From Candidatus Omnitrophota bacterium (GTDB taxonomy: Bacteria > Omnitrophota > Gorgyraeia > JABMRN01 > RBG-13-46-9): a DNA stretch of 64,000 nt. Under the pieces are notes generated by a model. The model was not told the origin of the DNA. It worked only from the letters and a program-made list of their open reading frames with translations, and searched no databases. The translations under genes were made by a program, and so were the position numbers. Positions 4,743 through 64,000 of this stretch are shown one piece after another. Each line of letters starts with the position of its first letter. The first letter of the stretch is position 1. The stretch covers positions 655-64,654 of the forward strand of contig JADHYN010000001.1 in the NCBI GenBank assembly GCA_016782425.1, given 5' to 3'.

Positions 4743-5423
4743 TTATAGTAAATAATTCCAAATAAAATACAACCCGACTAGCACAAATATAACACCTGTT
4801 ATTTTTCTTGTATACTTCTCGACAGCAGCTATTTTATGAAACCAGTGTGAAGCTGATAATACGCCGAGCGCGATTCCTATCGCAAAAAGCATGACCGGAA
4901 GCCCTGTACCTATGCCAAAAAAGAAAGGCAAAACTATGCCTGCTTTGCTACTCAGCGCCAAAGGAATAAGGCTACCGAAAAATAACGCCGCGGAAAGCGG
5001 GCAAAAAGAAAGCGCAAAAATAGCTCCCAATAAGAATGCGCCTTTTGCCCCTGACCTGGCGAGAGACTCCTGTTTTTCCTTTGAAAGTGAAAATCCAGGC
5101 GTATTGAGGCGTATCACGCCCAAAAGAAACAGCCCAACCACAAGCAATAAAGGGCCCAATATTCTGTTCATATATTTTTGCAGAAAGTTCGCAACGGAAG
5201 GAACGCCGGCGATAGACGTTATAATAACTACTCCCAAAATAGCATATGCGGCCATGCGCCCAAGAGTATAAGCGCTTCCTGCCAATAAGACCGCTTTGGG
5301 ATGATTTATTTTCTTTGCCAGAAAAGAAATAGCGGCAACGTTAGTTGCTAAAGGACAGGGACTAATCGAGGTAAGTATGCCCAGCCAGATGGCAGATCCA
5401 AAAGTAATAAAAATCTCCATCAC
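4743..5423 (-). CDS. CcdA/DsbD-like transmembrane thiol-disulfide transfer protein (resembles ArsG-family annotation)
   Basis: This is a 226-aa membrane protein with two membrane Cys motifs, SPCPL and FCPL, as in the DsbD_2/CcdA core. It sits between ACR3 and thioredoxin-like genes. Confidence 0.6.
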
Positions 5424-5839
5424 TACATATCTTTCAGAAAAATAGCGACTTCGCTTTTAACATAATCGGTATACTTTGTTTTATTCCTTACGTATTCCCA
5501 GATTTTATCGAGATTTTTATGCTTTACTTCTTTACCGTCTTTTACTAAAGATAGGACCAGCGATTTTGTGTAGAGCTGGTAATCATTTACAAAATGTTCG
5601 TTTTCTTTTTCTTCTACGTTTACTGTCTTAAAAATAAGATTGCCTTTAGCTAATTCTTCGCTGAAATTATTGTCAATTGCATCTTTGGCATACTGCTCTA
5701 ATTTTTGACAGGTAGGGCATCGGAAGGCTCCGTGAAAATAATAAACTATAACTTTGCTGTTATCGCAGAATGCGGAAGATGCACTAAAGAGAACTGTTAC
5801 TAAGATAAGGATGGTTAAAAACTTTTTTATGCTAACCAT
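5423..5839 (-). CDS. secreted thioredoxin-like CxxC protein (resembles ArsF-family annotation)
   Basis: It has a signal peptide and a CPTC motif inside YYFHGAFRCPTCQKLE. It overlaps the neighbouring genes by a few nt, which suggests an operon. Confidence 0.5.
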   Translation of the reverse strand: MVSIKKFLTILILVTVLFSASSAFCDNSKVIVYYFHGAFRCPTCQKLEQYAKDAIDNNFSEELAKGNLIFKTVNVEEKENEHFVNDYQLYTKSLVLSLVKDGKEVKHKNLDKIWEYVRNKTKYTDYVKSEVAIFLKDM

Positions 5840-50864: not shown

Positions 50865-51521
50865 TTAGTGACAGGTTGGGCAGTGAGGGTGGGAGCTTTC
50901 TTTGACGAAAAGAAGAGGAAAAACGATATCGCTTACACAGCATGGCACCCAGACAGCTATAAAGAGGAAAACAAATACGCCTGCGTAGGAAATCCACGTA
51001 AGCTTCTCGCCTATTGCCATCAGGATATGAAACAAAGACGCCCAGGTACTTAAAAGTACGTGTCCGGCGTGAGGAAATTTTGTCCTGGGCCTGAAATAGG
51101 CTATCGCTATCCCTATTATAGCAAGGGGGTTTACGAGCCACCATTTCTCAATAAAACCTATATGCATGTGTCTGTGTGGCATATTAAGAAGCGTTTCCCC
51201 CAGGTAAGGAATAAGGGAATCGCTTAAAGTCGCTATCCCGATAGCGCCGACATAGCCTATGACTAAGAGCGCCCAAATATTACATTTACTTTTAAGACCG
51301 CCGCATTTGTGAATATTATACATCGACGCCGTAACAAGCGCACTTAATAGAACGTGCAGGGGGTGAAACACATAAAACATATCATATGAGGTTCTTTCCG
51401 GCAGGTTCTTACAAAAAAACATAAGCGCTATGCCTGTCAGCGCCCCGAAGATAGTGAAGGGTGCGTGGTGCTTGAGTTCTGTTAATATTTTTTTAAGCAT
51501 ACTTTGTTTCTTTGAATTCAC
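50865..51521 (-). CDS. integral membrane protein with His/Cys-rich motifs (HRHMH, HAGH, C-terminal HPHCPTCH); function unknown, possibly metal-related
   Basis: It is 218 aa with about 5-6 TM helices. The metal-ligand-like clusters and its position next to nikR suggest a metal role. Confidence 0.35.
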   Translation of the reverse strand: MNSKKQSMLKKILTELKHHAPFTIFGALTGIALMFFCKNLPERTSYDMFYVFHPLHVLLSALVTASMYNIHKCGGLKSKCNIWALLVIGYVGAIGIATLSDSLIPYLGETLLNMPHRHMHIGFIEKWWLVNPLAIIGIAIAYFRPRTKFPHAGHVLLSTWASLFHILMAIGEKLTWISYAGVFVFLFIAVWVPCCVSDIVFPLLFVKESSHPHCPTCH

Positions 51522-51585: not shown

Positions 51586-52185
51586 TTAATTAGCGTAACT
51601 CCATCGCATTTTGATATCCAGGATAGGAGTACCATTAACTGCATCAAGCCCTTCAACGAAAAGAACCGCCCCTTTTACCTCCGCCAGCCTGACGTCTTGT
51701 ATGCCAATTCTTGACAGTCTGTAAGGCGTGCGTGAAGCGAATACCCCCACTTCTTTTCCGTCTAAACCTCTTTTAAAGATTGATGCCACGGAATTTGCCT
51801 CGTGTAAATAGTAAACAATCGTAATGTATTCTTCTTCTTCTAATTTATATAAGAAAGGTTTTTGTGATGCAAATAGCTTTATGCGCGATGTTCCGTCCTT
51901 GCCACGGGTATCAAAACCTTTACCGGCACGCTTTAGTTTATTATAAACAATGCCTATGGGATAAATTTTAAACGGTTTTGCCTTGCTGTATAAACAGGCG
52001 GGACAAACCGGTTTGCCGTCAACAACAACATTATTGACGGGCGCCATTTTCCTGTTGCACCTAGAACACCTGCTATTTTTCATTGTTTTCTTCCTGAAAT
52101 CACCACGAATCCCCCTTCGCCGAAGCCTCTTTTCGGTTTTTCTACTGAATTGATTTTTCCCGGCAGCTCGAAAATAGTCTGCCAA
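51586..52185 (-). CDS. TsaA/YaeB-like (TrmO-family) SAM-binding beta-barrel domain protein with N-terminal Cys4 zinc ribbon
   Basis: The C-terminal SRTPYRLSRIGIQDVRL...GLDAVNGTPILDIK matches the TsaA-like UPF0066 signature. The N-terminus is CSRCNRK...CPAC. The start may be the ATG at 52086 (MKNSRCSRC), which avoids overlap. Confidence 0.5.
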   Translation of the reverse strand: MADYFRAAGKNQFSRKTEKRLRRRGIRGDFRKKTMKNSRCSRCNRKMAPVNNVVVDGKPVCPACLYSKAKPFKIYPIGIVYNKLKRAGKGFDTRGKDGTSRIKLFASQKPFLYKLEEEEYITIVYYLHEANSVASIFKRGLDGKEVGVFASRTPYRLSRIGIQDVRLAEVKGAVLFVEGLDAVNGTPILDIKMRWSYAN

Positions 52186-52700
52186 TAAGAGATCCGGGAA
52201 AAACGGATTTTTGTCAACATCTCTGTTATTTCTTTAATGCCAAAAAAGTTTGCTTTTTTATAAAAAACGCTTTTTTTTATCCGGTAAAATTTACCTAAAA
52301 AACTATTCTTATCTATAATCCCTATAATAATCTTACCGTTTTTCCTTAGCACTCTTTTTGCCTCTCGCAACACTTGCTCGGGATTTTTAACAAAGCAAAG
52401 GGTAATAATAATTGTAACAAAATCAAATTCGGAATTTTTAAATGGTACTTTTTCTCCAAGGCCTGATTTTATCCTGATCTCTCTTTTTCCGGCTATCCCA
52501 AGCATTTTTTTCGAAGGATCTATTCCATATTTTGTACCAAGCAAAACAGCAAATCTTCCTGTACCCACGCCAATTTCAATTCCTTTTCCCATTCTCGGGA
52601 CTGCTTTTTTTACCGCTTTGAGCTCCGAAAGATATGCAAATTTATTCCTATCGTACCAGGCGTCGTATTTCTTGTAATATTTATTAAATATATTACTCAT
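52080..52700 (-). CDS. class I SAM-dependent methyltransferase
   Basis: IEIGVGTGRFAVLL is motif I, and FDFVTIIITLCFV is post-II. Confidence 0.7.
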   Translation of the reverse strand: MSNIFNKYYKKYDAWYDRNKFAYLSELKAVKKAVPRMGKGIEIGVGTGRFAVLLGTKYGIDPSKKMLGIAGKREIRIKSGLGEKVPFKNSEFDFVTIIITLCFVKNPEQVLREAKRVLRKNGKIIIGIIDKNSFLGKFYRIKKSVFYKKANFFGIKEITEMLTKIRFSRISYWQTIFELPGKINSVEKPKRGFGEGGFVVISGRKQ

Positions 52701-53677: not shown

Positions 53678-54955
53678 CTACTTAACTTGCGACTCTTCAA
53701 TTGAATGTGTTGGAGCAGGAACTTTTTCAAGTTGCCCGTTTCGATATTTATTCACGGTTTCAGCTACAGTTAAATCCTCTGCAATTTTGTATATATCTAC
53801 AAAGTTTTCCTTAAGCATATAAAATGATAATTCTCCGATTTTAGCGGTAAACAGCATATCCAGCTTATATTTTATTACCGCTTTAATAACTTTAATGCCT
53901 ATGTGTTTTTTCTCATTAAGAAATTCGTTGTAATAAAAATCCTCTATTTCTGCATCTTTATCGGTTAATCTTAAGATAATATAATACGGAGCTCGTCCAA
54001 AATGGGCGTGAACCTTTGAATCCAAACCGTTCATATCCTTTACCGGAATAATCACCGATTCAACATTTCGTTTTGCAGGTTCAAGATGTATAAATACGGA
54101 TTCAATATCCTCATAGCTTTTGGTTATCAAATCTTCTGTTTTATCCGCAAGCTCATGCGCGCGGTATAATGGAAGTGTAGGCGAAGTCTCGATTTTGCAT
54201 TCTACCATCTTGAACGGCCCTGATTGCCGAATTTTGACCTCACTTGTTCCTTTAACCCCGTATATTTCATTTATCTTTTTTTCAATCGCGAATTGCAATT
54301 CGGGGCCTAGATTAGCGTCCATTAACGCCAATAAAGACATCCATACGTTTTCAATGCCTAATTTGAAAATCAAAAGCGAAATTAAAACTATAATAACTCC
54401 TTCTATATGGGGAATTCTTAAAAAAGCCAACCATATCCCTGCCAAAACAACCATTGAAGTAATAATATCCAGAAATGATTCCCGGGCATTAGCAATAAGG
54501 GATTGAGAGTTACTTTCTCGGCCTGCTGCTTGTTCTTTTCTGGCTATAAAAAAAGCCGCTATAGCTGATATTCCACTCACAACGAGAGGCAAAGCAGGGA
54601 ATTCTTCAACTTGGGTTATGTGGAAAAGCTTATAATATCCTTCTTTTAACATCCCTATGCCAGCCCATATTATGAATATTCCAATTAAAAAACTAACCAG
54701 AGTTTCTGCTTTATATAACCCATAAGGAAATCTGGCGCTTTTTTTCTTTCCCGCTAACCAAAGACCAAAACCGGAAGCAAAAATTGCCAAAAGATCTGCG
54801 GCACTGTGAAACGCATCAGCCAATAATATTTTTGAATTAAATAGGTACCCTACGGTGCCTTTGGCAATTGCTAGAAACAAAGTAAAAAAGGCAGCTATAA
54901 ACGCTACTTTTTGGCCCCTTTTTAATTTCTCCATCCTACCTTTGGCAATCCCCAT
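53678..54955 (-). CDS. cation diffusion facilitator (CDF) transporter fused to a C-terminal NifX/NifB-like (dinitrogenase FeMo-cofactor-binding) domain
   Basis: The N-terminal ~300 aa have six TM helices with CDF signatures (LLADAFHSAADLL; H/D metal sites). The C-terminal VIIPVKDMNGLDSKVHAHFGRAPYYIIL matches the conserved HFGxAP start of the NifX/NafY/NifB-C domain. Confidence 0.65.
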   Translation of the reverse strand: MGIAKGRMEKLKRGQKVAFIAAFFTLFLAIAKGTVGYLFNSKILLADAFHSAADLLAIFASGFGLWLAGKKKSARFPYGLYKAETLVSFLIGIFIIWAGIGMLKEGYYKLFHITQVEEFPALPLVVSGISAIAAFFIARKEQAAGRESNSQSLIANARESFLDIITSMVVLAGIWLAFLRIPHIEGVIIVLISLLIFKLGIENVWMSLLALMDANLGPELQFAIEKKINEIYGVKGTSEVKIRQSGPFKMVECKIETSPTLPLYRAHELADKTEDLITKSYEDIESVFIHLEPAKRNVESVIIPVKDMNGLDSKVHAHFGRAPYYIILRLTDKDAEIEDFYYNEFLNEKKHIGIKVIKAVIKYKLDMLFTAKIGELSFYMLKENFVDIYKIAEDLTVAETVNKYRNGQLEKVPAPTHSIEESQVK

Positions 54956-54978: not shown

Positions 54979-55212
54979 TTATTCCTGAAAAAACTGCCGG
55001 GTCATAAAGGCACCGCAATTAGGGCATCTTGTCTGAAAGCAAGGCAAGCCTCGTCTATGAGGAACAACTCTTTCGCAATTGGGACAAATGCAGGTCTCTA
55101 GAGGTCCAACCGGGCCTCGAGGCCCAAACCATCCACGTCCTCTACTCCCTCCAAAACCTCTGCCTCGTCCATCGCCTCCTCTGCCTCTGCCCTTTCCAAA
55201 TCCAAATGGCAT
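54979..55212 (-). CDS. DUF5320-like Gly/Arg-rich small protein, Cys-containing variant (CxCPxC ... CPxCG)
   Basis: MPFGFGKGRGRGGDGRGRGFGGSRGRGWFGPRGP... is followed by CICPNCERV...CPNCGAFM. It is a paralogue of 62572..62805. Confidence 0.5.
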   Translation of the reverse strand: MPFGFGKGRGRGGDGRGRGFGGSRGRGWFGPRGPVGPLETCICPNCERVVPHRRGLPCFQTRCPNCGAFMTRQFFQE

Positions 55213-55227
55213 TTCGATACTCCTTTT

Positions 55228-55941
55228 CTAGACTTTTATTTCTGCCCCTGCTTTAATTGGTAGAAAATCTTTTTTATACTTAAGTTTAAAAATTTCTTCC
55301 GCTCTTGGGCCCGAACAATGAGTGGCTCCGACTTTTTTTACCCCTATTTTCTTGAACTCATCGGCAATAATTTCAATGAGCATTTTGTCCTTGTCCATAA
55401 GATGAAAACCGCCTAGAACTGCGTAAATATCTTCTTTTGGGAAATTTTTCTTTACAGTATTTAACATTTTAATTATGCCGGGGTGAGCGCAACCGGTAAT
55501 AACAGATATACCCTTGTTGGTCTTAACAACCAACGCTTGTTCAGGCATATATTCACCTTTATATTCACCGGTAATTTCACCTGTAACAAAAATGTTTTTT
55601 GAAGTTTCGGTAATATTCTTCGTTCCTTTAAGGTTTCCGTTTAGCTTTTTGGCTTTATCCTTGAATTCGGCGCTGAAATTAGGGCATGCGTAAATCGTAA
55701 GGCCTTTTTTCCTCTTCAACAACTCCCACAGGCCACCCTGGTGATCCCAGTGGTCATGCGAAATTACCACAGCTTTTATCTTGTCGATATTTACATTTAA
55801 AATTTTCATGTTTTCTGTAAGCCAGGCGCCGTTTTCTCCCGTATCGAAAAGCACCTTCTCCTCGACCAAAAAAGAGACCCCCCAACCGGTACGCAGAGTT
55901 TTATTTTTTGCTTCCTTGTCAAAAAGCACTTCTATTCGCAT
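55228..55941 (-). CDS. MBL-fold metallo-hydrolase
   Basis: VVISHDHWDHQGG is the HxHxDH motif. A downstream GCAHPG His ligand is present. Confidence 0.75.
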   Translation of the reverse strand: MRIEVLFDKEAKNKTLRTGWGVSFLVEEKVLFDTGENGAWLTENMKILNVNIDKIKAVVISHDHWDHQGGLWELLKRKKGLTIYACPNFSAEFKDKAKKLNGNLKGTKNITETSKNIFVTGEITGEYKGEYMPEQALVVKTNKGISVITGCAHPGIIKMLNTVKKNFPKEDIYAVLGGFHLMDKDKMLIEIIADEFKKIGVKKVGATHCSGPRAEEIFKLKYKKDFLPIKAGAEIKV

Positions 55942-55945
55942 AATT

Positions 55946-56827
55946 TTATGGCCTTTTGCATAATATTATATCGCCAAGTTCGCATTTTACTTCACGAGCA
56001 ACTACCGGACACTTTGCCATGAAAAGAAAAAATATGTTCTTCTTTCTTCCGGAAAGGGCCTCGAAATTCCCCTGTCCCTTACTTATAACCATATCTGCAT
56101 TTTTATATATCTTCAGGAATTTAGCGGAACAAAGCGAAAGAACCGTTCCGGGGACGTCAAGGCCGCTTGAAATTACTTCTGTTACTTTGTCTAAACCGCA
56201 GTATACGGCATCGGCCATTATGGCGTCATTAATGATAGGTTTTTCTTTAATCGCGTAAAAAATTTTCTTGTGCGGGTATATTCTAAGTATTTCCTCTATA
56301 AGGATCCTGTCGAAAACTATCTCACCAGCGTTATCGCCCAAGTATAAAATCTTACCGGATTTTGCAAGAGCCAGCTTAAAAGCAGCGTAATTAAAAAGGC
56401 GGTTCGACTCATTTTTAATCGCCCTATTTTCCAGATTAAGTATTTTTTTTAGTTCACTCGTAACATCAAGGAAATTTTTTACCCCGTAGTCAATTATGTT
56501 ACCCGCTATAGCAAGTTCCACCGCGGTAAATAACGCGTCTTTCGAACGCCTTACTTTGTTCTTGAGCTTCCCATAAAGTGAAAGTGCCTGGCGATTGCTT
56601 TTTTCTTTTATTTTTTTATATGGGTCTTTCTTGCCGGTTTCCCTGTTTACAGTGCCATAAATTATTCTGCCCATTTCGGGAGGCGATTTTTGGAGGGTAA
56701 GCTTTTCTATCGCGCCTGCTATTTTCTTTAAAATTCTGCGCTGCGTAAGTGAGCCCGCTCCGGCGAGCCGCGCGGCCTCAAGCGCCTGTTTAAAAAAACA
56801 TGGTATACATTCTAAATATGTCTTCAT
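55946..56827 (-). CDS. DUF89 family protein (ARMT1-like damage-control phosphatase fold)
   Basis: The N-terminal LECIPCFFKQALEA (CxPC motif) and the DNAGE metal-binding motif (YLGDNAGEIVFD) are diagnostic of DUF89. Confidence 0.7.
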   Translation of the reverse strand: MKTYLECIPCFFKQALEAARLAGAGSLTQRRILKKIAGAIEKLTLQKSPPEMGRIIYGTVNRETGKKDPYKKIKEKSNRQALSLYGKLKNKVRRSKDALFTAVELAIAGNIIDYGVKNFLDVTSELKKILNLENRAIKNESNRLFNYAAFKLALAKSGKILYLGDNAGEIVFDRILIEEILRIYPHKKIFYAIKEKPIINDAIMADAVYCGLDKVTEVISSGLDVPGTVLSLCSAKFLKIYKNADMVISKGQGNFEALSGRKKNIFFLFMAKCPVVAREVKCELGDIILCKRP

Positions 56828-56833
56828 TTACCA

Positions 56834-57610
56834 TCAAACCTTGCCTCTTCTTTTCAAGGTGTCTTCCGAGCTGATAGGATTAACTCTCTTTTTTTGTGCG
56901 TCATAAACCGAAACGGTATTCAATCCGGCAAAATGCGCTTTTATAATATTCATTTCCGGATTCGTTAACGGTTTTACCCTGCATGGCCTAAGAGGCGTGT
57001 TTAGCTGAACTTCATCGGGACTAATTTCTTTTGCAATCTTCGCAATCTCCTGCACATAGCTTTTATTTTGTTCTATGAACATAATCTGCAACGCCAATTT
57101 TCCTATATAGCAGCTTTTAAAGTCTTTTACTGCCTGAATAATATTTTCAATTTTTATAGTGCTTAACGGCTTATTTACTTGGTTAAAAACTTTTTGCATA
57201 GAACTATCTAATTTGGCAACGACAAAATCCGCACAAAAGAGGTCTTTTTGGACATCTTCTCGGTTCAAAAGCGAGGAATTAGTCAAAACTGCTATTTTCT
57301 CATTTCGTATTTTCTTTATCGCCCTTATCATATCGCCCAGGTTTTTCGCCAATGTCGGCTCACCGGTTCCGGAAAAAGTTATGTAATCGATTTTGAGATG
57401 TGGCAGGCTATCAAACTCTTCTATTACATCCTCAACCTTAACAAACGTCTTCCGTTTATCGGTTAATATCTTAGTCTTTCCGATCTGGCAATATACACAA
57501 TCGAATGTGCAAACCTTCTCACCCTTAGACAAAGGATCTATCCCCAGAGAACTGCCTAACCTCCAGGACGGTACAGGCCCATAAATATATTTATAGTTTT
57601 TTTGGCTCAT
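56834..57610 (-). CDS. radical SAM protein ([16 protein letters not shown]-terminal motif class)
   Basis: CTFDCVYCQ is the CxxxCxxC motif, and [10 protein letters not shown] is the SAM-binding GGEP-like motif. I place the start at the ATG at 57610. Confidence 0.75.
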
Positions 57611-58430
57611 CCAAAACACTCGCAATCTTCACCATAATTTCATTCATGATGTTCGCTGTTTGTGTCTGTCTTTTAAAATGAATAAATGGTTGCCCCGAAT
57701 CTCCAAACTTTACCATTTCAGGTTCAATAGGTATTCTTCCTAAGAACGGCACTTTTAAATCATGAGCCGATTTCTCGCCACCACCCATTCCGAATAAATC
57801 TATCTCTTTTTTGCAGTGCGGGCACAAGAAACCGCTCATATTCTCAATTATACCAATAACAGGCATTTTCAACTCTTTCGCGAATAAAACACTCTTTCTT
57901 GAATCCAAAATAGCCACATCCTGCGGCGTAGTGACCACTATCGCTCCATTTATGTCCGGAATAAGCTGGCATACGCTCAATGGTTCATCACCGGTTCCAG
58001 GAGGAGAATCCACTATTAAGTAATCAAGCTCCCCCCAGTTAACATCAGCCAAAAACTGTTTTATGGTTACCATTTTGAGGGGGCCGCGCCAAACAATAGG
58101 CTGATCTTGATTCTCAAATAACAAAGCAAGACTTACTGCTTTTAGGTTAGGCAAAACTTCCATGGGCTCAATTCCGGACTCAGAACCTATGAGCCTTTTG
58201 CCTTCAATCCCTAACATTTTGGCAATATTGGGCCCGTGAATATCGACATCCAGAATGCCCACCTTATTTCCTTTGACAGCCAGCCCATACGCTAAATTAA
58301 CGGCAACTGTGCTCTTGCCGACTCCGCCTTTTCCGCTTATTACAATAAGCTTATATTTTATTTTAAACATCCTCTCTTTGAGGCGGTTCTCTTGTTCGAT
58401 TCTTTCTTCGTCTTTTTTCTGCATCAGCAA
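57591..58430 (-). CDS. Mrp/NBP35/ApbC-family Fe-S cluster carrier ATPase
   Basis: The deviant Walker A is [11 protein letters not shown]. The [13 protein letters not shown]-terminal CxxC motif is typical of ApbC/Nbp35. Confidence 0.85.
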
Positions 58431-58448: not shown

Positions 58449-59363
58449 CTAGGGCTTATCAATTCCTGTTTGTAACTTTTCCCATGCCTCGTTTATTTCC
58501 TTTTTGGCCTTTCCGCCAGCGTATTCTGTTATTGTCTTCCCTTTAACCATCGCCTCTACCACAGATTTATCGAAAGGGATTTTGCCTACTAAACCGATAT
58601 TATTTACCTTTGAGTATTCCTCTATTTTTTGCGTCATATCCGTATTAAGGTCGTACTTATTTACGATTAATTTCGCTAAAATACCAAAATGTTTGGCTAC
58701 ACTTATAACCCTATCCGCATCATGAAGCCCTGAAAGCGTCGGCTCTGTAACAACAATAGCACAGTCTATGCCTGAAAGAGACGCTATGACAGGACACCCT
58801 ATCCCGGGCGCGCCGTCTATGATTACGAGATCCGCTTTTTTTGCTTCGGCCAGTTCCTTTGCCTTTTGCCTAACAAGGCTTACAAGCTTCCCGGAATTTT
58901 CCTCCGCTATGCCGAGCTTGGCATGTACCATAGGGCCAAAACGTGTATTAGAGATAAACCATTCGCCTGAAATATTTTCTTCCATTTTTATGGCGCCTAC
59001 GGGACAAGCAAAACTGCAAAAAGCGCATCCTTCGCAGGAAACTCGGTCTACGGTAAAATCCTCGCTTACCTCGTTAGAAATGTCATTTCTAACGGGGCTA
59101 ATAGCATTGAAACGGCAAATTTCTATACATTTGCCGCATTGAACACATTTATTTTTATCTATGAAAGCCGTTTTACCGCTTCGAAATTCATATCGTTCTT
59201 TTATGTTAGGCTGCAACAATAAATGTAGGTCCGCCGCGTCCACATCGCAATCAGCCATTACTTTGTTTTTCGCAAGGGCGGCAAACGCTCCCGTAATTAC
59301 GGTTTTCCCTGTTCCGCCTTTTCCGCTTATTATTACGATTTGCTTCACTATAACCTTTCTCAC
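58449..59363 (-). CDS. MinD/ParA-superfamily P-loop ATPase with inserted 2x[4Fe-4S] ferredoxin domain
   Basis: The Walker A is ISGKGGTGKT. The inserted ferredoxin motifs are CVQCGKCIEIC and CEGCAFCSFACP. Confidence 0.8.
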   Translation of the reverse strand: MRKVIVKQIVIISGKGGTGKTVITGAFAALAKNKVMADCDVDAADLHLLLQPNIKERYEFRSGKTAFIDKNKCVQCGKCIEICRFNAISPVRNDISNEVSEDFTVDRVSCEGCAFCSFACPVGAIKMEENISGEWFISNTRFGPMVHAKLGIAEENSGKLVSLVRQKAKELAEAKKADLVIIDGAPGIGCPVIASLSGIDCAIVVTEPTLSGLHDADRVISVAKHFGILAKLIVNKYDLNTDMTQKIEEYSKVNNIGLVGKIPFDKSVVEAMVKGKTITEYAGGKAKKEINEAWEKLQTGIDKP

Positions 59364-60712
59364 ATTTTGTCTGACGCGTTTTGAGCCGCCAGCACAACCG
59401 GATACATTGTCGGAGCAGACGTCAAATATGGATGGGTTGCCATTTGCAATGTCTCCAGTTCCGTTACAGAAACTCTCTGCTGAATTGCCATGCCGATAAT
59501 GTTAATTATCTCTCCGGCGGATATACCTCCGACAACCTGGCCGCCCATTAAAATACCGGATTGTCTGGAAAAAATAAGCTTTACTCTCACTTTATTCGCT
59601 CCGGGAAGGCTTCCGGGATGCTTATCTATACTTTCCGTATTTCCCGAAACAATCTCAAACCCTTCTTTTTTAGCGCTTGTTTCCGTAAGTCCCGCAGAAC
59701 CTAAAACCAGGCCATCCACATAAGTCGAGTAAATCGCGATCGTTCCTTTGTTTTCACGCACAACTTTTAGCCGATAGAGGTTGGCTCCGGCAATTCTCGC
59801 TTCAGCTGTAGCGGTAGAAGCGAGCATAACAGGCGTATCTCTTCTTGTATAAAAATCTCGTTTCCCGGCGCAATCACCTACCGCGAAAATATCAGGATCA
59901 GCGGTACGCATGTATTCATCTACCCATATACCCTTGCCTCTCCCTAAATCCAAGCCTGCCTCAGTTGCCAAAGTTGTGTTAGGAACGGATCCTATTCCTA
60001 AAATAACACTGTCTATTCTTAACTCTTTCCCGTTGTCAAACCGCACACCTTTTATCTTATCATCCCCCAAAAATTCAACCACCTTAGTGCTGGTTAAAAG
60101 GGTAACGCCCCCTGACTTTAGCCTTTCTTCAACCAACAAAGAAAACTCATCATCAAAAGAATTCGCGAGCAAACGGGGAAGAACTTCGGCTAAATATACA
60201 TTAATGTCATTTATTTTTGAGATCTCATCAGCAAACTCAACGCCTATAAATCCGCCGCCAAGAATCAATACATTTTTCGCTTTTTTAAGTTTAGTTATAA
60301 TTGCTTTAAGATAATTCATGTCCTTATATACGGGGTAGATTCCTTCTTTCTCAATCCCGGCTATAGAAGGCTTAATTGGCATAGATCCCGGGGCAAGGAC
60401 AAGTTTCTCATATTCATATTCTTCACCGCTTTTAGCAGTTATTTTTTTTGCGCTACGATCCATCTTTACCGCTTCGTCAATAATAACTTCTATGTTATTC
60501 TTTTTAAGAGCGTCAAGTCCCAGCTTATTGTCATCAGGATTTTTAAGACTCCAGAACATATAGGGAATCCCGCACGGAATACAACCGTTAACTACATTTT
60601 TCATAACCACAACGTCTTTATCCGGATAATACCTTTTTGCCGTAATCGCGCTTACGAGCCCGGCCGGTCCTCCTCCGATAATAAGAACACCCACTTTTTT
60701 AACCATAAACAC
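59360..60712 (-). CDS. FAD-dependent pyridine nucleotide-disulfide oxidoreductase (CoA-disulfide reductase/NADH oxidase-like)
   Basis: The N-terminal FAD site is VLIIGGGPAGLVSA. A Cys pair sits in NGCIPCGIPY, and the second Rossmann motif is VLILGGGFIGVEFA. Confidence 0.75.
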   Translation of the reverse strand: MFMVKKVGVLIIGGGPAGLVSAITAKRYYPDKDVVVMKNVVNGCIPCGIPYMFWSLKNPDDNKLGLDALKKNNIEVIIDEAVKMDRSAKKITAKSGEEYEYEKLVLAPGSMPIKPSIAGIEKEGIYPVYKDMNYLKAIITKLKKAKNVLILGGGFIGVEFADEISKINDINVYLAEVLPRLLANSFDDEFSLLVEERLKSGGVTLLTSTKVVEFLGDDKIKGVRFDNGKELRIDSVILGIGSVPNTTLATEAGLDLGRGKGIWVDEYMRTADPDIFAVGDCAGKRDFYTRRDTPVMLASTATAEARIAGANLYRLKVVRENKGTIAIYSTYVDGLVLGSAGLTETSAKKEGFEIVSGNTESIDKHPGSLPGANKVRVKLIFSRQSGILMGGQVVGGISAGEIINIIGMAIQQRVSVTELETLQMATHPYLTSAPTMYPVVLAAQNASDKM

Positions 60713-60719
60713 CTTTCTT

Positions 60720-61103
60720 TTATGAAGATTCCAGCATTACACAGAGTCCGTAAATCACATCAATATTATTATCACGGCAAAATTTTATTGCGGTTTCACT
60801 TTCGGCTCCCGGTTGAAGCCAGACTCTTTTAATGGATTTTTTCCGGCATTCCTTTACTATTGTTTCAGTAACAGAAGGCGGGGTAACCACATTAACGACA
60901 TCGATATTAAAAGGGATATCGCTTATGCTTTTATAGCATTTTATCCCATCGACATCGCTAAGACGGGGGTTAACAGGAAAGGCCTCATACCCTTTTTTTA
61001 TTAAAGTTTTCAAAATCTTATACGCGTATTTAGCTTCATTTCTAAACGAGCCAACAATCGCAAACCTCTTTTGTTTTAAAAAATCTTTAATTAGGCTTTC
61101 CAT
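60720..61103 (-). CDS. CoA-binding domain protein (YccU/YneT-like)
   Basis: FAIVGSFRNEAKYAYKILKTL...GYEAFPVNP matches the CoA_binding_2 fold signature. I place the start at the ATG at 61103. Confidence 0.65.
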   Translation of the reverse strand: MESLIKDFLKQKRFAIVGSFRNEAKYAYKILKTLIKKGYEAFPVNPRLSDVDGIKCYKSISDIPFNIDVVNVVTPPSVTETIVKECRKKSIKRVWLQPGAESETAIKFCRDNNIDVIYGLCVMLESS

Positions 61104-61944
61104 CTTTAATTTTGTTAAAAAGCTCTTCAAAATCTTTTTTGTATTCGGGAAACGTTTTCACAATCGACTCACCTTTAGAATAGGCAACTGCTATCTCTTT
61201 CTTAAAAGGTATACGCATGAGAATAGGAATATTCTGTTCCTTGCAATATTTGTCTGTTTTCTCATCGCCTAAATCAGAACGGTTAATCACGACTCCGAAC
61301 CGAATCTTGAGTTTCCTCAAGACTTCTACCGCAAGGGTTAAATCATTTAACCCAAAGGGCGTCGGCTCGGTAACAAGCACACAAAAATCGCTTTTCTTTA
61401 TAGTCTCAACTACGGGGCATGACGTTCCGGGAGGGGCATCGATAATAACAGTGCGTGTTGGATTGAGATGTTTTTTGATTTCCCTTATAACGGGAGGCGC
61501 CATTGCTTCGCCTATATTCAATCGCCCGTGTATAAATTGTATAGACTCAACCGTGCCAATTTCAATTTCACCGATTTCTTTATTCACTTCCTTTATGGCG
61601 CTTTCAGGACAAAAATAAGAACAACTTCCGCAGCCATGGCAAAGGTTCGAAAAAACTAGAATGTTTCCCTTTTTGCCATCAGTTCCTCCTATTACGGCAA
61701 TGACATTGTAAGCGCATACCTCACGGCACCTGCCGCAATAGGTACACTTTTCCTCATCTATTTCCGGAATGGGAATATAAACTTTTTTTGTTTCTTTTAT
61801 CTTGGGTTTTAAAAAAATGTGGGCGTTTGGTTCTTCCGCGTCGCAATCCAAAAACTGCACTTCCTTATTTATAGAAAGCGCTAAATTGACCGCTATCGTA
61901 GTCTTACCTGTTCCGCCTTTCCCGCTTGCAACTGAAATAACCAT
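61087..61944 (-). CDS. MinD/ParA-superfamily P-loop ATPase with inserted 2x[4Fe-4S] ferredoxin domain (second copy)
   Basis: The Walker A is ASGKGGTGKTT. The ferredoxin motifs are CTYCGRCREVC and CHGCGSCSYFCP. Confidence 0.8.
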   Translation of the reverse strand: MVISVASGKGGTGKTTIAVNLALSINKEVQFLDCDAEEPNAHIFLKPKIKETKKVYIPIPEIDEEKCTYCGRCREVCAYNVIAVIGGTDGKKGNILVFSNLCHGCGSCSYFCPESAIKEVNKEIGEIEIGTVESIQFIHGRLNIGEAMAPPVIREIKKHLNPTRTVIIDAPPGTSCPVVETIKKSDFCVLVTEPTPFGLNDLTLAVEVLRKLKIRFGVVINRSDLGDEKTDKYCKEQNIPILMRIPFKKEIAVAYSKGESIVKTFPEYKKDFEELFNKIKDGKPN

Positions 61945-62820: not shown

Positions 62821-63195
62821 CTATTTTCTTGGCGGCATGCCAAATTTTGAATTCACGCTCGGCCCGCCTGTAGATTTAAGCCCACCTTTTTTGTATTTTT
62901 CAACAGCTTCTTTAACCGTACCGGAAACTCCGGTAATTACCTCTACACCGGCCGCTTGTAAAGTCTGAAACGCGTTAGGCCCGACATTTCCCGTAAGCAC
63001 GGTTTTCGCTTTTTTATCAGCAATAAGCTGCCCGGACTGGACTCCGGCTCCACCCATTGAGTCAATATTAGGATTTTTTACCACCTCGAGTTTCATAGTG
63101 TCGGTATCTACGACAATAAAATATTGACATCTACCAAAACGCGGATCAACTTTAGAATCCAGATTGTCACCTTCCGAAGTAATGCAAATTTTCAT
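62821..63195 (-). CDS. NifX/NifB-like dinitrogenase FeMo-cofactor biosynthesis domain protein
   Basis: [30 protein letters not shown]... matches the conserved start of the Nitro_FeMo-Co domain, with a glycine-rich tail. Confidence 0.8.
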
Positions 63196-63210: not shown

Positions 63211-63615
63211 TTAATCATCGCAATCCTTTTCATTAGGATGGTCACACTCGGACTTCTCTATGCCATAGCCTTTTCCTGCGCCGGGCTTGCAAAGGCTTTC
63301 CCCACCCTCAAGTGTTCCTTTCAGAATTTTTTTTAAAACTTCGTCGATTTTTCCGCTTATGCCGACAATCGCTTTAATGTTAAGCTCTTCAAAAAATTGA
63401 GTTGCCCGCATTCCCATCCCCCCGGCTATTATAACATTTACTCCCTTTTCGTGCAAAAATTGGGGTATTGCACCCGGCTGATGGCCCGGATTTGGTACAA
63501 CCTCTTTTTTTATCAGCTTATTTTCACTAATATCTAAAATGGTGAACTCCGGACATCGCCCGAAGTGGGCAGATACATTGTCCCCGTCAGTTGATATAGC
63601 TATTTTCATAAGCAC
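63211..63615 (-). CDS. NifX/NifB-like dinitrogenase FeMo-cofactor biosynthesis domain protein with Cys/His-rich C-terminus
   Basis: KIAISTDGDNVSAHFGRCPEFTILD is the family signature. The C-terminus is ...GESLCKPGAGKGYGIEKSECDHPNEKDCDD. Confidence 0.8.
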   Translation of the reverse strand: MLMKIAISTDGDNVSAHFGRCPEFTILDISENKLIKKEVVPNPGHQPGAIPQFLHEKGVNVIIAGGMGMRATQFFEELNIKAIVGISGKIDEVLKKILKGTLEGGESLCKPGAGKGYGIEKSECDHPNEKDCDD

Positions 63616-63709: not shown

Positions 63710-64000
63710 TTATTTCTTCTCACTTTTCGCCGCAGACTCAAGCTCTTTCACCCGAGCGTTAACAGCGTCAAGTTCTTCTTTAAGAAGCGAAGCCTCTTCC
63801 TTTAACGCCTTTGCCTCGTCTTTTGACGTTGCCTCCGGGTATGCATAACCATACTGCGGGTAACCGTAAGCATAAGGATAGGCTGCTCTAGCCCGGCCCC
63901 GGCCTCTGCCAAAGCCTCTTCCAAATCCTCTGCCACCGCCACGGCCATATCCTAATCCTCTTCCCGGGATAGGGTTTGCGTAACCCGGCACCGGGTAACC
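63710..64000 (-). CDS. DUF5320 family protein (Gly/Arg-rich N-terminus, YPYAYGYP aromatic stretch, C-terminal coiled coil); 5' end probably beyond window
   Basis: ...GYANPIPGRGLGYGRGGGRGFGRGFGRGRGRARAAYPYAYGYPQYGYAYPEATSKDEAKALKEEASLLKEELDAVNARVKELESA is the canonical DUF5320 layout. The frame is open to the window edge, and the ORF-track start is a GTG. Confidence 0.55.
   Translation of the reverse strand, partial: GYPVPGYANPIPGRGLGYGRGGGRGFGRGFGRGRGRARAAYPYAYGYPQYGYAYPEATSKDEAKALKEEASLLKEELDAVNARVKELESAAKSEKK

Follow-up and report, generated by a model that had tools for sequence, protein, structure and literature searches.

A cation diffusion facilitator with an added IPR003731 domain, and its small cationic partner, in Omnitrophota and many other anaerobic microbes

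Introduction

Why would a metal transporter that belongs to the cation diffusion facilitators (CDFs) carry a NifX-like domain at its C-terminal end, and what would the domain do there? The question is raised by a gene at 53678..54955 on the minus strand of a 64,000-nt stretch of a Candidatus Omnitrophota contig (JADHYN010000001.1; hereafter the window, meaning the whole stretch that was analysed), which encodes a 425-aa three-domain protein, here called CDF-NifX. A sequence-only reading of the same DNA had described a six-helix CDF core fused to a domain of the NifX/NafY/NifB-C kind, and had suggested that such a protein exports or senses a metal cluster or an organometallic species in connection with neighbouring metallocofactor genes. 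We find that the domain has been added to a complete CDF, that this architecture recurs in many anaerobic phyla, and that its gene is paired with that of a small cationic six-cysteine protein, GRZn. Tentatively, and at slightly less than even chances, we propose that CDF-NifX exports Fe(II) and that its added domain, together with GRZn, binds Fe-S or iron species to gate or to feed this export.

The buffering, storage and disposal of iron by strict anaerobes, whose cytoplasm is sulfidic and rich in Fe-S, are poorly understood. To our knowledge, no clear physiological role has been established for the orange-protein (ORP) complex, for IssA, or for the thousands of non-nif proteins of the IPR003731 superfamily. 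A transporter that physically bears an IPR003731 domain and is tied to both GRZn and ORP-type genes provides a concrete and testable handle on this problem, and could reveal whether IPR003731 modules serve to sense Fe-S or to donate it.

An additional domain on a complete CDF protein

The CDF-NifX gene is an uninterrupted open reading frame (ORF) with an ATG start, spans exactly the interval given in the sequence-only reading, and is preceded by an AGGA-type ribosome-binding site in the 23-nt gap that separates it from the GRZn gene. Its product is identical to GenBank MBL7156573.1, annotated as a "cation diffusion facilitator family transporter" in a Candidatus Omnitrophota metagenome-assembled genome (MAG). 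Three Pfam domains follow one another without overlap, each far over its curated cutoff: the Cation_efflux transmembrane domain (PF01545; residues 19-212, 54320..54901 on the minus strand; E 7e-42, 143.9 bits vs. a cutoff of 26.6), ZT_dimer, the canonical CDF cytoplasmic C-terminal domain (PF16916; residues 222-293, 54077..54292 on the minus strand; E 1e-15, 57.7 bits vs. 26.7), and Nitro_FeMo-Co, the IPR003731 domain also called 'NifX-like' or 'Di-Nase' (PF02579; residues 312-405, 53741..54022 on the minus strand; E 3.5e-14, 53.3 bits vs. 26.3). A profile search of the C-terminal region for Nitro_FeMo-Co had been named beforehand as one of two checks on which the proposed fusion could fail, and it returned the last of these matches, well clear of its cutoff. 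The HFGRAP motif occupies residues 318-323 (context VHAHFGRAPYY). After the domain, the protein ends in an acidic tail, PTHSIEESQVK, which contains the conserved PTH-x-x-EE, and it has no cationic Gly/Arg/aromatic tail in cis.

The AlphaFold2 model of the monomer (mean pLDDT 85.7, pTM 0.71), built on a 64-sequence alignment with identities down to 38%, places six transmembrane (TM) helices at residues 2-38, 42-69, 78-111, 121-148, 151-178 and 184-211, followed by an alpha/beta C-terminal domain (218-293) and by a separate alpha/beta domain (299-405). In an earlier run, for which the alignment was shallow (37 sequences with identities of 67% or more), pLDDT was 66 and the NifX part was unreliable; the present model replaces it. 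In a Foldseek comparison with the PDB, YiiP/ZnT chains matched over about 280-300 columns (E ~1e-11), and the last domain matched Ta1041 (2re2) over 120 columns (TMt 0.84, rmsd 2.2 Å). No listed chain aligned beyond about 344 columns, and none therefore covers the whole 425-residue architecture. Since both the Pfam and the fold matches show the two cytoplasmic domains to be present, the NifX-like domain was added after the canonical C-terminal domain. The six-helix core with its HFGRAP-bearing extension thus stands as first described, and of the two arrangements then considered, augmentation of the canonical domain holds and replacement does not, ZT_dimer being intact. CDF-NifX is a member of both the CDF family and the IPR003731 superfamily.

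The other check concerned a joined pair of genes. Standalone NifX-like genes lie nearby in the window, and the fusion could in principle be an artefact, a CDF gene and such a neighbour having been joined by a frameshift in sequencing or assembly. Nothing else speaks for this explanation, whose probability we regard as negligible: the linker is continuous and conserved, the model is confident, and the identical single-ORF architecture is found in hundreds of independent assemblies and in at least 75 species-level genomes, as detailed in the next section.

Distribution among anaerobic microbes

According to precomputed annotations, the 120 best clusters in each of two large searches all carry the same three Pfam domains (120/120 in both), and the fusion is present in hundreds of database clusters. 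Scanning one genome per GTDB species yielded 80 loci that were kept, about 75 of them full length, with 46-78% identity. As labelled, they belong to Omnitrophota, Nitrospirota/Thermodesulfovibrionia, Syntrophales, Syntrophorhabdia, Desulfuromonadales, Desulfobacterales, KSB1, Calditrichota, Victivallales, Aminicenantes, Spirochaetota, Fibrobacterota and Zhuqueibacterota; all 80 come from MAGs, and some binning labels (e.g., "Planctomycetia") may be unreliable. More distant members were recovered by searching 50%-identity representatives with the last 128 residues of the protein, which returned about 50 clusters; their proteins are 400-460 aa long and have the domain at about 295-420, and identities go down to about 25%. 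When five divergent fusions were re-scanned, all three domains were kept in each of the five. The survey of public genomes that the sequence-only reading had called for thus extends the fusion to many anaerobic phyla, among whose microbes CDF-NifX is widely conserved.

One member is archaeal. Its contig (P0307, locus L082; JAGGZO010000036.1, from an Aenigmarchaeota MAG) is taken to be archaeal because a gene for ribosomal protein L37e lies on it as well. That the fusion occurs there together with ORP-type neighbours implies that it either was transferred between domains of life or is of ancient origin.

Every database source names these fusions plain CDF transporters only, and a search of open-access full text found no description of the CDF plus NifX architecture. 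It appears to have been present in databases while remaining undescribed and uncharacterised.

The transport core and its candidate substrate

Transport site A of CDF-NifX consists of H50 and D54 in TM2 and of E159 and D163 in TM5, aligned to D45, D49, H153 and D157 of Escherichia coli YiiP. In ZT_dimer, H267, H290 and E292 align with YiiP H261, H283 and D285. Conservation throughout the family was computed over 53 divergent fusions: the four positions of site A read H/N/D, D (53/53), E/D/H and D (51/53), and for H267, H290 and E292 alike, the residue is retained in 44 of these proteins. On these alignments, CDF-NifX is predicted to be an intact single-ion CDF.

Among NCBIfam models, the generic CDF superfamily model TIGR01297 is matched with 187.5 bits (cutoff 82.35). 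The best named equivalog, MamB, reaches 120.8 bits and falls below its cutoff of 350; MamM (109), FieF (97), MntE (93), ZitB (38) and DmeF (26) score lower and are likewise sub-threshold. CDF-NifX is hence outside every one of these named characterised subfamilies. Because similarity decreases in the order MamB, MamM, FieF, MntE, and because site A is rich in carboxylates, we infer that Fe2+, or possibly Mn2+, is the substrate ahead of Zn, Co and Ni.

The single-ion site also bears on the boldest form that the suggestion of the sequence-only reading can be given, namely export of an intact metal cluster, of a thiometallate or of an organometallic cofactor, delivered to the pump by the NifX-like domain. 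Clusters are indeed carried by IPR003731 domains, both during nitrogenase maturation and in the orange protein, and the neighbourhood is rich in metallocofactor genes. Whole-cluster export is nevertheless unlikely because site A is intact and conserved family-wide; the CDF fold is retained, with no sign of a widened pathway. The characterised CDFs that we know of all move single cations (YiiP/ZnT structures). The domain itself is not of the nif type (see below), and no nitrogenase (nif) genes were found among the ORFs annotated at 36-64 kb (28 kb around the gene). We judge this alternative highly improbable.

The added domain

Among close homologues, the added domain is as conserved as the core. 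Across the 53 divergent fusions, its conserved positions are P304, G310, H318-F-G-R-A, N343, G353, D366, G374-E375, L381, Y389 and P415-T416. The persistence of HFGRA, N343, G353 and G374-E375 at such distances indicates that the domain is under selection. A part in sensing or in donation would be plausible.

Its family placement departs from the one first proposed. Searched in isolation against NCBIfam, the domain gave no nif-specific match even at E<=10 (HMMER filters can drop very weak matches). Its sequence matches in the PDB are TM1816 (1o13, 5e-8), MTH1175 (1eo1, 4e-6), TM1290 (1rdu), Desulfovibrio gigas ORP (2wfb, 3e-5) and Ta1041, among which no chain is named NafY, NifX or NifB-NifX. 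Because nif-specific matches are lacking and the nearest solved relatives are TM1816, MTH1175 and ORP, the domain is best placed, as far as profile and sequence comparisons go, on the IssA/orange-protein side of the broad IPR003731 superfamily and not with the nitrogenase cofactor carriers.

In Pyrococcus furiosus, the IPR003731 domain of IssA (PF2025) binds Fe and S, and a cationic Gly/Arg/aromatic tail was proposed to bind anionic thioferrate (PMC5524996). In Desulfovibrio, MrpORP's Di-Nase domain holds a [3Fe-4S] cluster through Cys/His motifs, and Orp8 holds a Mo-Cu-S cluster non-covalently (PMC6345978).

A mononuclear metal site formed by H316, E336, E338, D339, H351 and H417 of the added domain was considered as a family-wide mechanism and rejected, these residues varying across the 53 divergent fusions. 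Likewise, nickel or cobalt was entertained as the leading substrate, on account of a NikR gene 3 kb downstream of CDF-NifX in the window, and was dropped: of the 80 loci, just 2 have NikR next to the pump gene, and among the named CDF models DmeF scores lowest. (Neighbour counts, here and below, refer to the 80 loci and to distances <=10 kb, many contigs being broken off.)

These residues and this neighbour belong to a wider alternative, in which CDF-NifX pumps another divalent metal (Mn2+, Zn2+ or Co2+/Ni2+) and the added domain extends the allosteric C-terminal domain as a second cytoplasmic sensor of metal ions. The carboxylate-rich H-D-E-D of site A resembles Mn-type sites too, MntE scores nearly as well as FieF, the His and acidic residues just listed are conserved within the CDF-NifX subfamily, and NikR is encoded close by in the window. 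The rarity of NikR elsewhere and the weakness of the DmeF and ZitB matches weigh the other way, as do the variation of the His/acidic cluster in the wider family and the nature of the conserved neighbours, which are Fe-S proteins, joined in some loci by FeoAB or a ferritin. A pump for another metal with such a sensor is in our estimation unlikely.

GRZn, a small cationic partner

Directly upstream of the CDF-NifX gene and on the same strand lies a gene for a 77-aa protein (54979..55212, minus strand), for which no family model was matched in Pfam or NCBIfam and which we call GRZn. Its residues 1-38 form a Gly/Arg/Phe-rich cationic head (pI 12.0), and its six cysteines (C41, C43, C46, C58, C63 and C66), which are invariant in the alignment, are arranged in CxCPxC...PCF...CPxC knuckles. 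Of the 77 loci that have at least 260 nt of upstream flank, 72 have a GRZn-type gene in this position and orientation. The encoded proteins are about 60-80 aa long, with heads in which Gly (30%), Arg (18%), Pro and Phe are abundant, and their family comprises at least 387 database clusters, almost all of them un-named or 'hypothetical'. GRZn is thus an almost obligate partner of CDF-NifX, and this pairing is both a new finding and the most useful new lead of the present work.

GRZn-type modules also occur in larger proteins. They are extended by a 2x[4Fe-4S] ferredoxin in nine loci and, in addition, in P0426, P0436 and P0442, and they are fused to DUF134, a putative DNA-binding domain, in L083 and P0438. 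In L083, the DUF134 protein (5104-5604, plus strand), a putative helix-turn-helix regulator, ends in a complete GRZn module, which suggests that the Gly/Arg plus six-Cys unit could serve as the sensor domain of a DNA-binding protein.

An ORP-type neighbourhood

The genes upstream of GRZn in the window are all on the minus strand. Nearest to it are genes for an MBL-fold metallo-hydrolase (55228..55941; Pfam; 39 of 80 loci, and also the divergent loci L081 and L083), an ARMT1-like/DUF89 protein (55946..56827; Pfam E 3e-70; 20 of 80) and a small radical SAM protein that is weakly MoaA-like or W-cofactor-maturase-like (56834..57625; Pfam, with all NCBIfam matches sub-threshold; 33 of 80). They are followed by a Mrp/NBP35 Fe-S carrier ATPase that corresponds to the P-loop half of MrpORP, or Orp9 (57591..58430; Pfam ParA E 1.5e-96; NCBIfam MrpORP 371 bits; 32 of 80), by a MinD/CbiA-type ATPase with an inserted 2x[4Fe-4S] ferredoxin (58449..59363), and by a pyridine nucleotide-disulphide oxidoreductase (FAD/NAD; 59360..60712; Pfam E 6e-59; 22 of 80, and also the archaeal locus L082). 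A second MinD/CbiA-type ATPase with a 2x[4Fe-4S] insert follows at 61087..61944; both ATPases are Orp3/Orp4-like, match Pfam CbiA/ParA and Fer4, and occur in 31 of the 80 loci. A CoA-binding protein is encoded between the oxidoreductase and this second ATPase, and a methyltransferase between the latter and two genes for standalone NifX-like proteins. The first of these (62821..63195) is Orp8/orange-protein-like (Pfam Nitro_FeMo-Co, 91.7 bits) and 27% identical to the fused domain by blastp. The second (63211..63615; Pfam, 86.6 bits), with HFGRC and a C-terminal CDH, corresponds to the Di-Nase half of MrpORP (NCBIfam, 105.8 bits). The cluster ends with a DUF5320 protein (63710..63991; Pfam PF17253, E 2.4e-14) that combines a Gly/Arg-rich N-terminus with a coiled coil and is, after GRZn, the other small cationic protein of the cluster.

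The ORP complex of Desulfovibrio comprises Orp3 and Orp4, which are MinD-like and have two [4Fe-4S] motifs each, the one-domain Di-Nase protein Orp8, and Orp9, i.e., MrpORP (PMC6345978). It further has a small [2Fe-2S] protein, Orp5 (DVU2105/Dde_3197), to which GRZn might conceivably be related, and sigma54/OrpR control. The Orp3/Orp4 feature is present in the window, where two MinD-like ATPases each carry Fer4 domains. MrpORP, which is a fused protein in Desulfovibrio, appears to be split in the window, the Mrp ATPase covering positions 3-253 of the model and the standalone NifX-like protein positions 265-365; both halves (371 and 106 bits) are below the 450-bit MrpORP cutoff. Judged by these gene assignments, the neighbourhood is an ORP-type Fe-S cluster with MrpORP apparently in two parts. 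The tie to neighbouring metallocofactor genes that the sequence-only reading had suggested is supported as a functional link, by conserved synteny, and revised in its nature, the machinery being of the ORP and not of the FeMo-co type. The cluster contains two pairings of an IPR003731 domain with a small cationic Gly/Arg protein, GRZn being the partner of the pump and DUF5320 that of the standalone proteins, and this double pairing may be seen as an echo of the domain-plus-tail design of IssA.

On the downstream side, the window encodes a thioredoxin, a Zn-ribbon protein, a DnaJ-domain protein, a methyltransferase, a TrmO-like protein, a His/Cys-rich membrane protein, NikR and an OprB porin. 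The TrmO-like ORF (51586-52185, minus strand; TTG start as listed) overlaps the upstream methyltransferase ORF (52080-52700, minus strand) by about 100 nt and has an N-terminal CxxC...CxxC extension before a TrmO_N match that starts at residue 99; its true start codon is uncertain. The gene at 50865-51521 (minus strand) encodes a His-rich 218-aa multi-helix membrane protein that ends in HPHCPTCH and has no Pfam or NCBIfam match. Homologues adjoin the pump gene in L011 and L020 and are found nearby in L001, L004, L016 and L056, and the protein may be another metal-handling membrane protein.

Over the window as a whole (1-64000), all ORFs of at least 180 aa that do not overlap a longer minus-strand ORF are on the minus strand, and GC skew is negative throughout apart from a single 2-kb bin; for a co-directional stretch, this is unusually long. 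Scans for sigma-70 promoters and for terminators gave nothing above shuffled expectation, and no operon boundaries were set.

Conserved synteny and variant loci

The neighbourhood is conserved beyond the window: the MBL gene recurs in 39 of the 80 loci, the radical SAM gene in 33, Mrp in 32, the MinD-ferredoxin pair in 31 and standalone NifX-like genes in about 33, vs. 2 for NikR. Several variants of the pump and of its locus are informative. P0183 (524 aa) has four domains, Cation_efflux, ZT_dimer, Nitro_FeMo-Co and FeS_assembly_P (PF01883, DUF59/MIP18). P0225, P0285 and P0152 carry IssA-like cationic Arg/Trp/Gly tails in cis, and in the P0285 locus, where the pump gene is directly adjoined by the MBL gene, no GRZn lies between the two. 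The archaeal locus L082 has the order EncFtn/rubrerythrin-like ferritin, pump, NifX-like, two MinD-ferredoxin genes and oxidoreductase, and the P0301 locus the order divergent FeoA-FeoB, DUF5320, DUF134-GRZn, NifX-like, pump, MBL and ARMT1. Of 85 loci, 8 encode FeoB in the flanking DNA that was retrieved, vs. about 0.8 expected under a crude model.

An 83-aa Cys-rich ORF (CKWFEVCP...CKGDYKNC), at 8059-8310 in L083, recurs between the MBL and ARMT1 genes and is found also in L084, L085, L010, L013, L056 and L063. It has no Pfam match and was not detected in the window by tblastn.

A candidate iron valve between the Fe-S pool and the membrane

How might these parts work together? In the mechanism that we propose, CDF-NifX would be a dimer-type CDF antiporter of an Fe/Mn-leaning branch that exports Fe(II) from the cytoplasm. 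It would keep its normal regulatory C-terminal domain and use the IssA/orange-protein-type IPR003731 domain as a third cytoplasmic module. Together with GRZn, through the cationic Gly/Arg head and the six-Cys knuckle of the latter, this module would bind an anionic species, either Fe-S or iron, that the ORP-type machinery provides (Mrp, the ATPases of the MinD-ferredoxin kind and the standalone NifX-like proteins). Ligand occupancy could then either gate iron efflux or hand iron to the pump, which would connect the cytoplasmic Fe-S pool with the membrane in the manner of an overflow valve. The link to Fe-S is drawn from the ORP-type neighbours, the FeS_assembly_P variant, the IssA-like cis tails and the GRZn-ferredoxin fusions; the link to iron is drawn from FeoAB beside P0301, the EncFtn-like ferritin beside P0307, and the FeoB genes in flanking DNA.

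Several observations weigh against such a valve. Metal specificity is not readable from sequence: the glutamate at the TM5 position of site A matches no characterised CDF pattern that could be assigned, and Mn2+ or Zn2+ are possible. Iron genes are adjacent in a minority of loci only. The added domain has no cysteine, as is the case in 31 of 53 relatives, and therefore cannot ligate a cluster in the way proposed for MrpORP's Di-Nase domain; its H316, E336, E338, D339, H351 and H417 are conserved in the subfamily and not family-wide. Finally, the complementarity between cis tails and GRZn is based on the single P0285 locus.

The lack of cysteines also opens another explanation, in which the NifX-like domain is a ligand-free docking module that tethers ORP-type proteins or GRZn to the membrane, or a dimer contact, while the pump performs ordinary metal efflux independent of Fe-S. 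It is in keeping with the finding that only scaffold-type residues of the domain are conserved family-wide, and with the strong synteny with ORP genes. In D. vulgaris, Orp3, Orp4 and MrpORP are located at the membrane or the cell pole, and the authors of the MrpORP study suggested that its Di-Nase domain has a structural role or takes part in protein interactions (PMC6345978). Docking alone accounts less readily for the His of the HFG motif, H318, which is kept in 37 of 53 divergent members, or for the FeS_assembly_P domain and the cationic tails of the variants, which point to cargo, and the characterised IPR003731 domains all bind metal-sulfur species. We find a pure docking role doubtful, and retain the gated or iron-fed exporter as our working proposal.

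A more specific version of this exporter is decidedly speculative and, in our judgement, quite unlikely. CDF-NifX and GRZn would constitute a membrane-anchored, split IssA-like device that holds thioferrate-like Fe-S at the cytoplasmic face of an iron CDF and couples a mineral-like Fe-S store to transmembrane Fe(II) flux. Such a device might be related in evolution to the logic of MamB/MamM and a NifX-domain protein (FmpB) in magnetosome-forming Desulfobacterota. If real, it would add to iron and Fe-S homeostasis a mode not described before, spread over many anaerobic phyla and at least one archaeal lineage. For CDF biology, the fusion also provides an example of an accessory cytoplasmic domain stacked on the canonical allosteric C-terminal domain. 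Should the added domain prove inert, the finding shrinks to a common but unremarked domain architecture.

Comparison with known systems

YiiP/FieF of E. coli and Shewanella is the best PDB match of CDF-NifX both by sequence (E 1e-13) and by fold. It shares with CDF-NifX the six-helix transmembrane domain, the alpha/beta C-terminal domain, the position of site A in TM2 and TM5, and the three site residues of the C-terminal domain. At about 21-25% identity, the two differ in site A (D-D-H-D in YiiP vs. H-D-E-D in CDF-NifX) and in the extra 130-aa IPR003731 domain that CDF-NifX has past its C-terminal domain.

The magnetosome iron transporters MamB and MamM provide the best-scoring characterised models, and their taxa overlap with those of CDF-NifX (Omnitrophota, Nitrospirota, Desulfobacterota). 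Moreover, the magnetosome protein FmpB of D. magneticus RS-1 also has a NifX/NifB domain (PMC4287615). The scores of CDF-NifX are nonetheless far under the 350-bit equivalog cutoffs, its family is much wider than magnetotaxis, and no other magnetosome genes were seen in the annotated parts of the window.

As for the added domain, NifX, NafY and the C-terminal domain of NifB share its Pfam/InterPro superfamily and the HFG motif. The domain of CDF-NifX differs in matching no nif-specific model and in the absence of nif genes from the annotated 36-64 kb. MrpORP (Orp9, DVU2109) bears the same Di-Nase/IPR003731 domain at the C-terminus of a metal-handling protein, in strict anaerobes and in the same kind of gene cluster. 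The partner of the domain there is a soluble P-loop ATPase and not a membrane transporter, and its Di-Nase domain has the Cys/His motifs CxHFGHCE and CDH, whereas the CDF-fused domain has VHAHFGRAPYY and no Cys. IssA combines an IPR003731 domain with a cationic Gly/Arg/aromatic tail, for which the Gly/Arg/Phe head of GRZn would stand in trans, and MTH1175, one of the nearest solved relatives of the added domain, has been called IssA-type (PMC5524996). IssA is soluble and forms nanoparticles, CDF-NifX lacks a cis tail, and the six-Cys module of GRZn is absent from IssA. By analogy, the closest functional precedents for CDF-NifX would be MrpORP, in which the domain is fused to an Fe-S carrier, and IssA, in which it is joined to a cationic tail.

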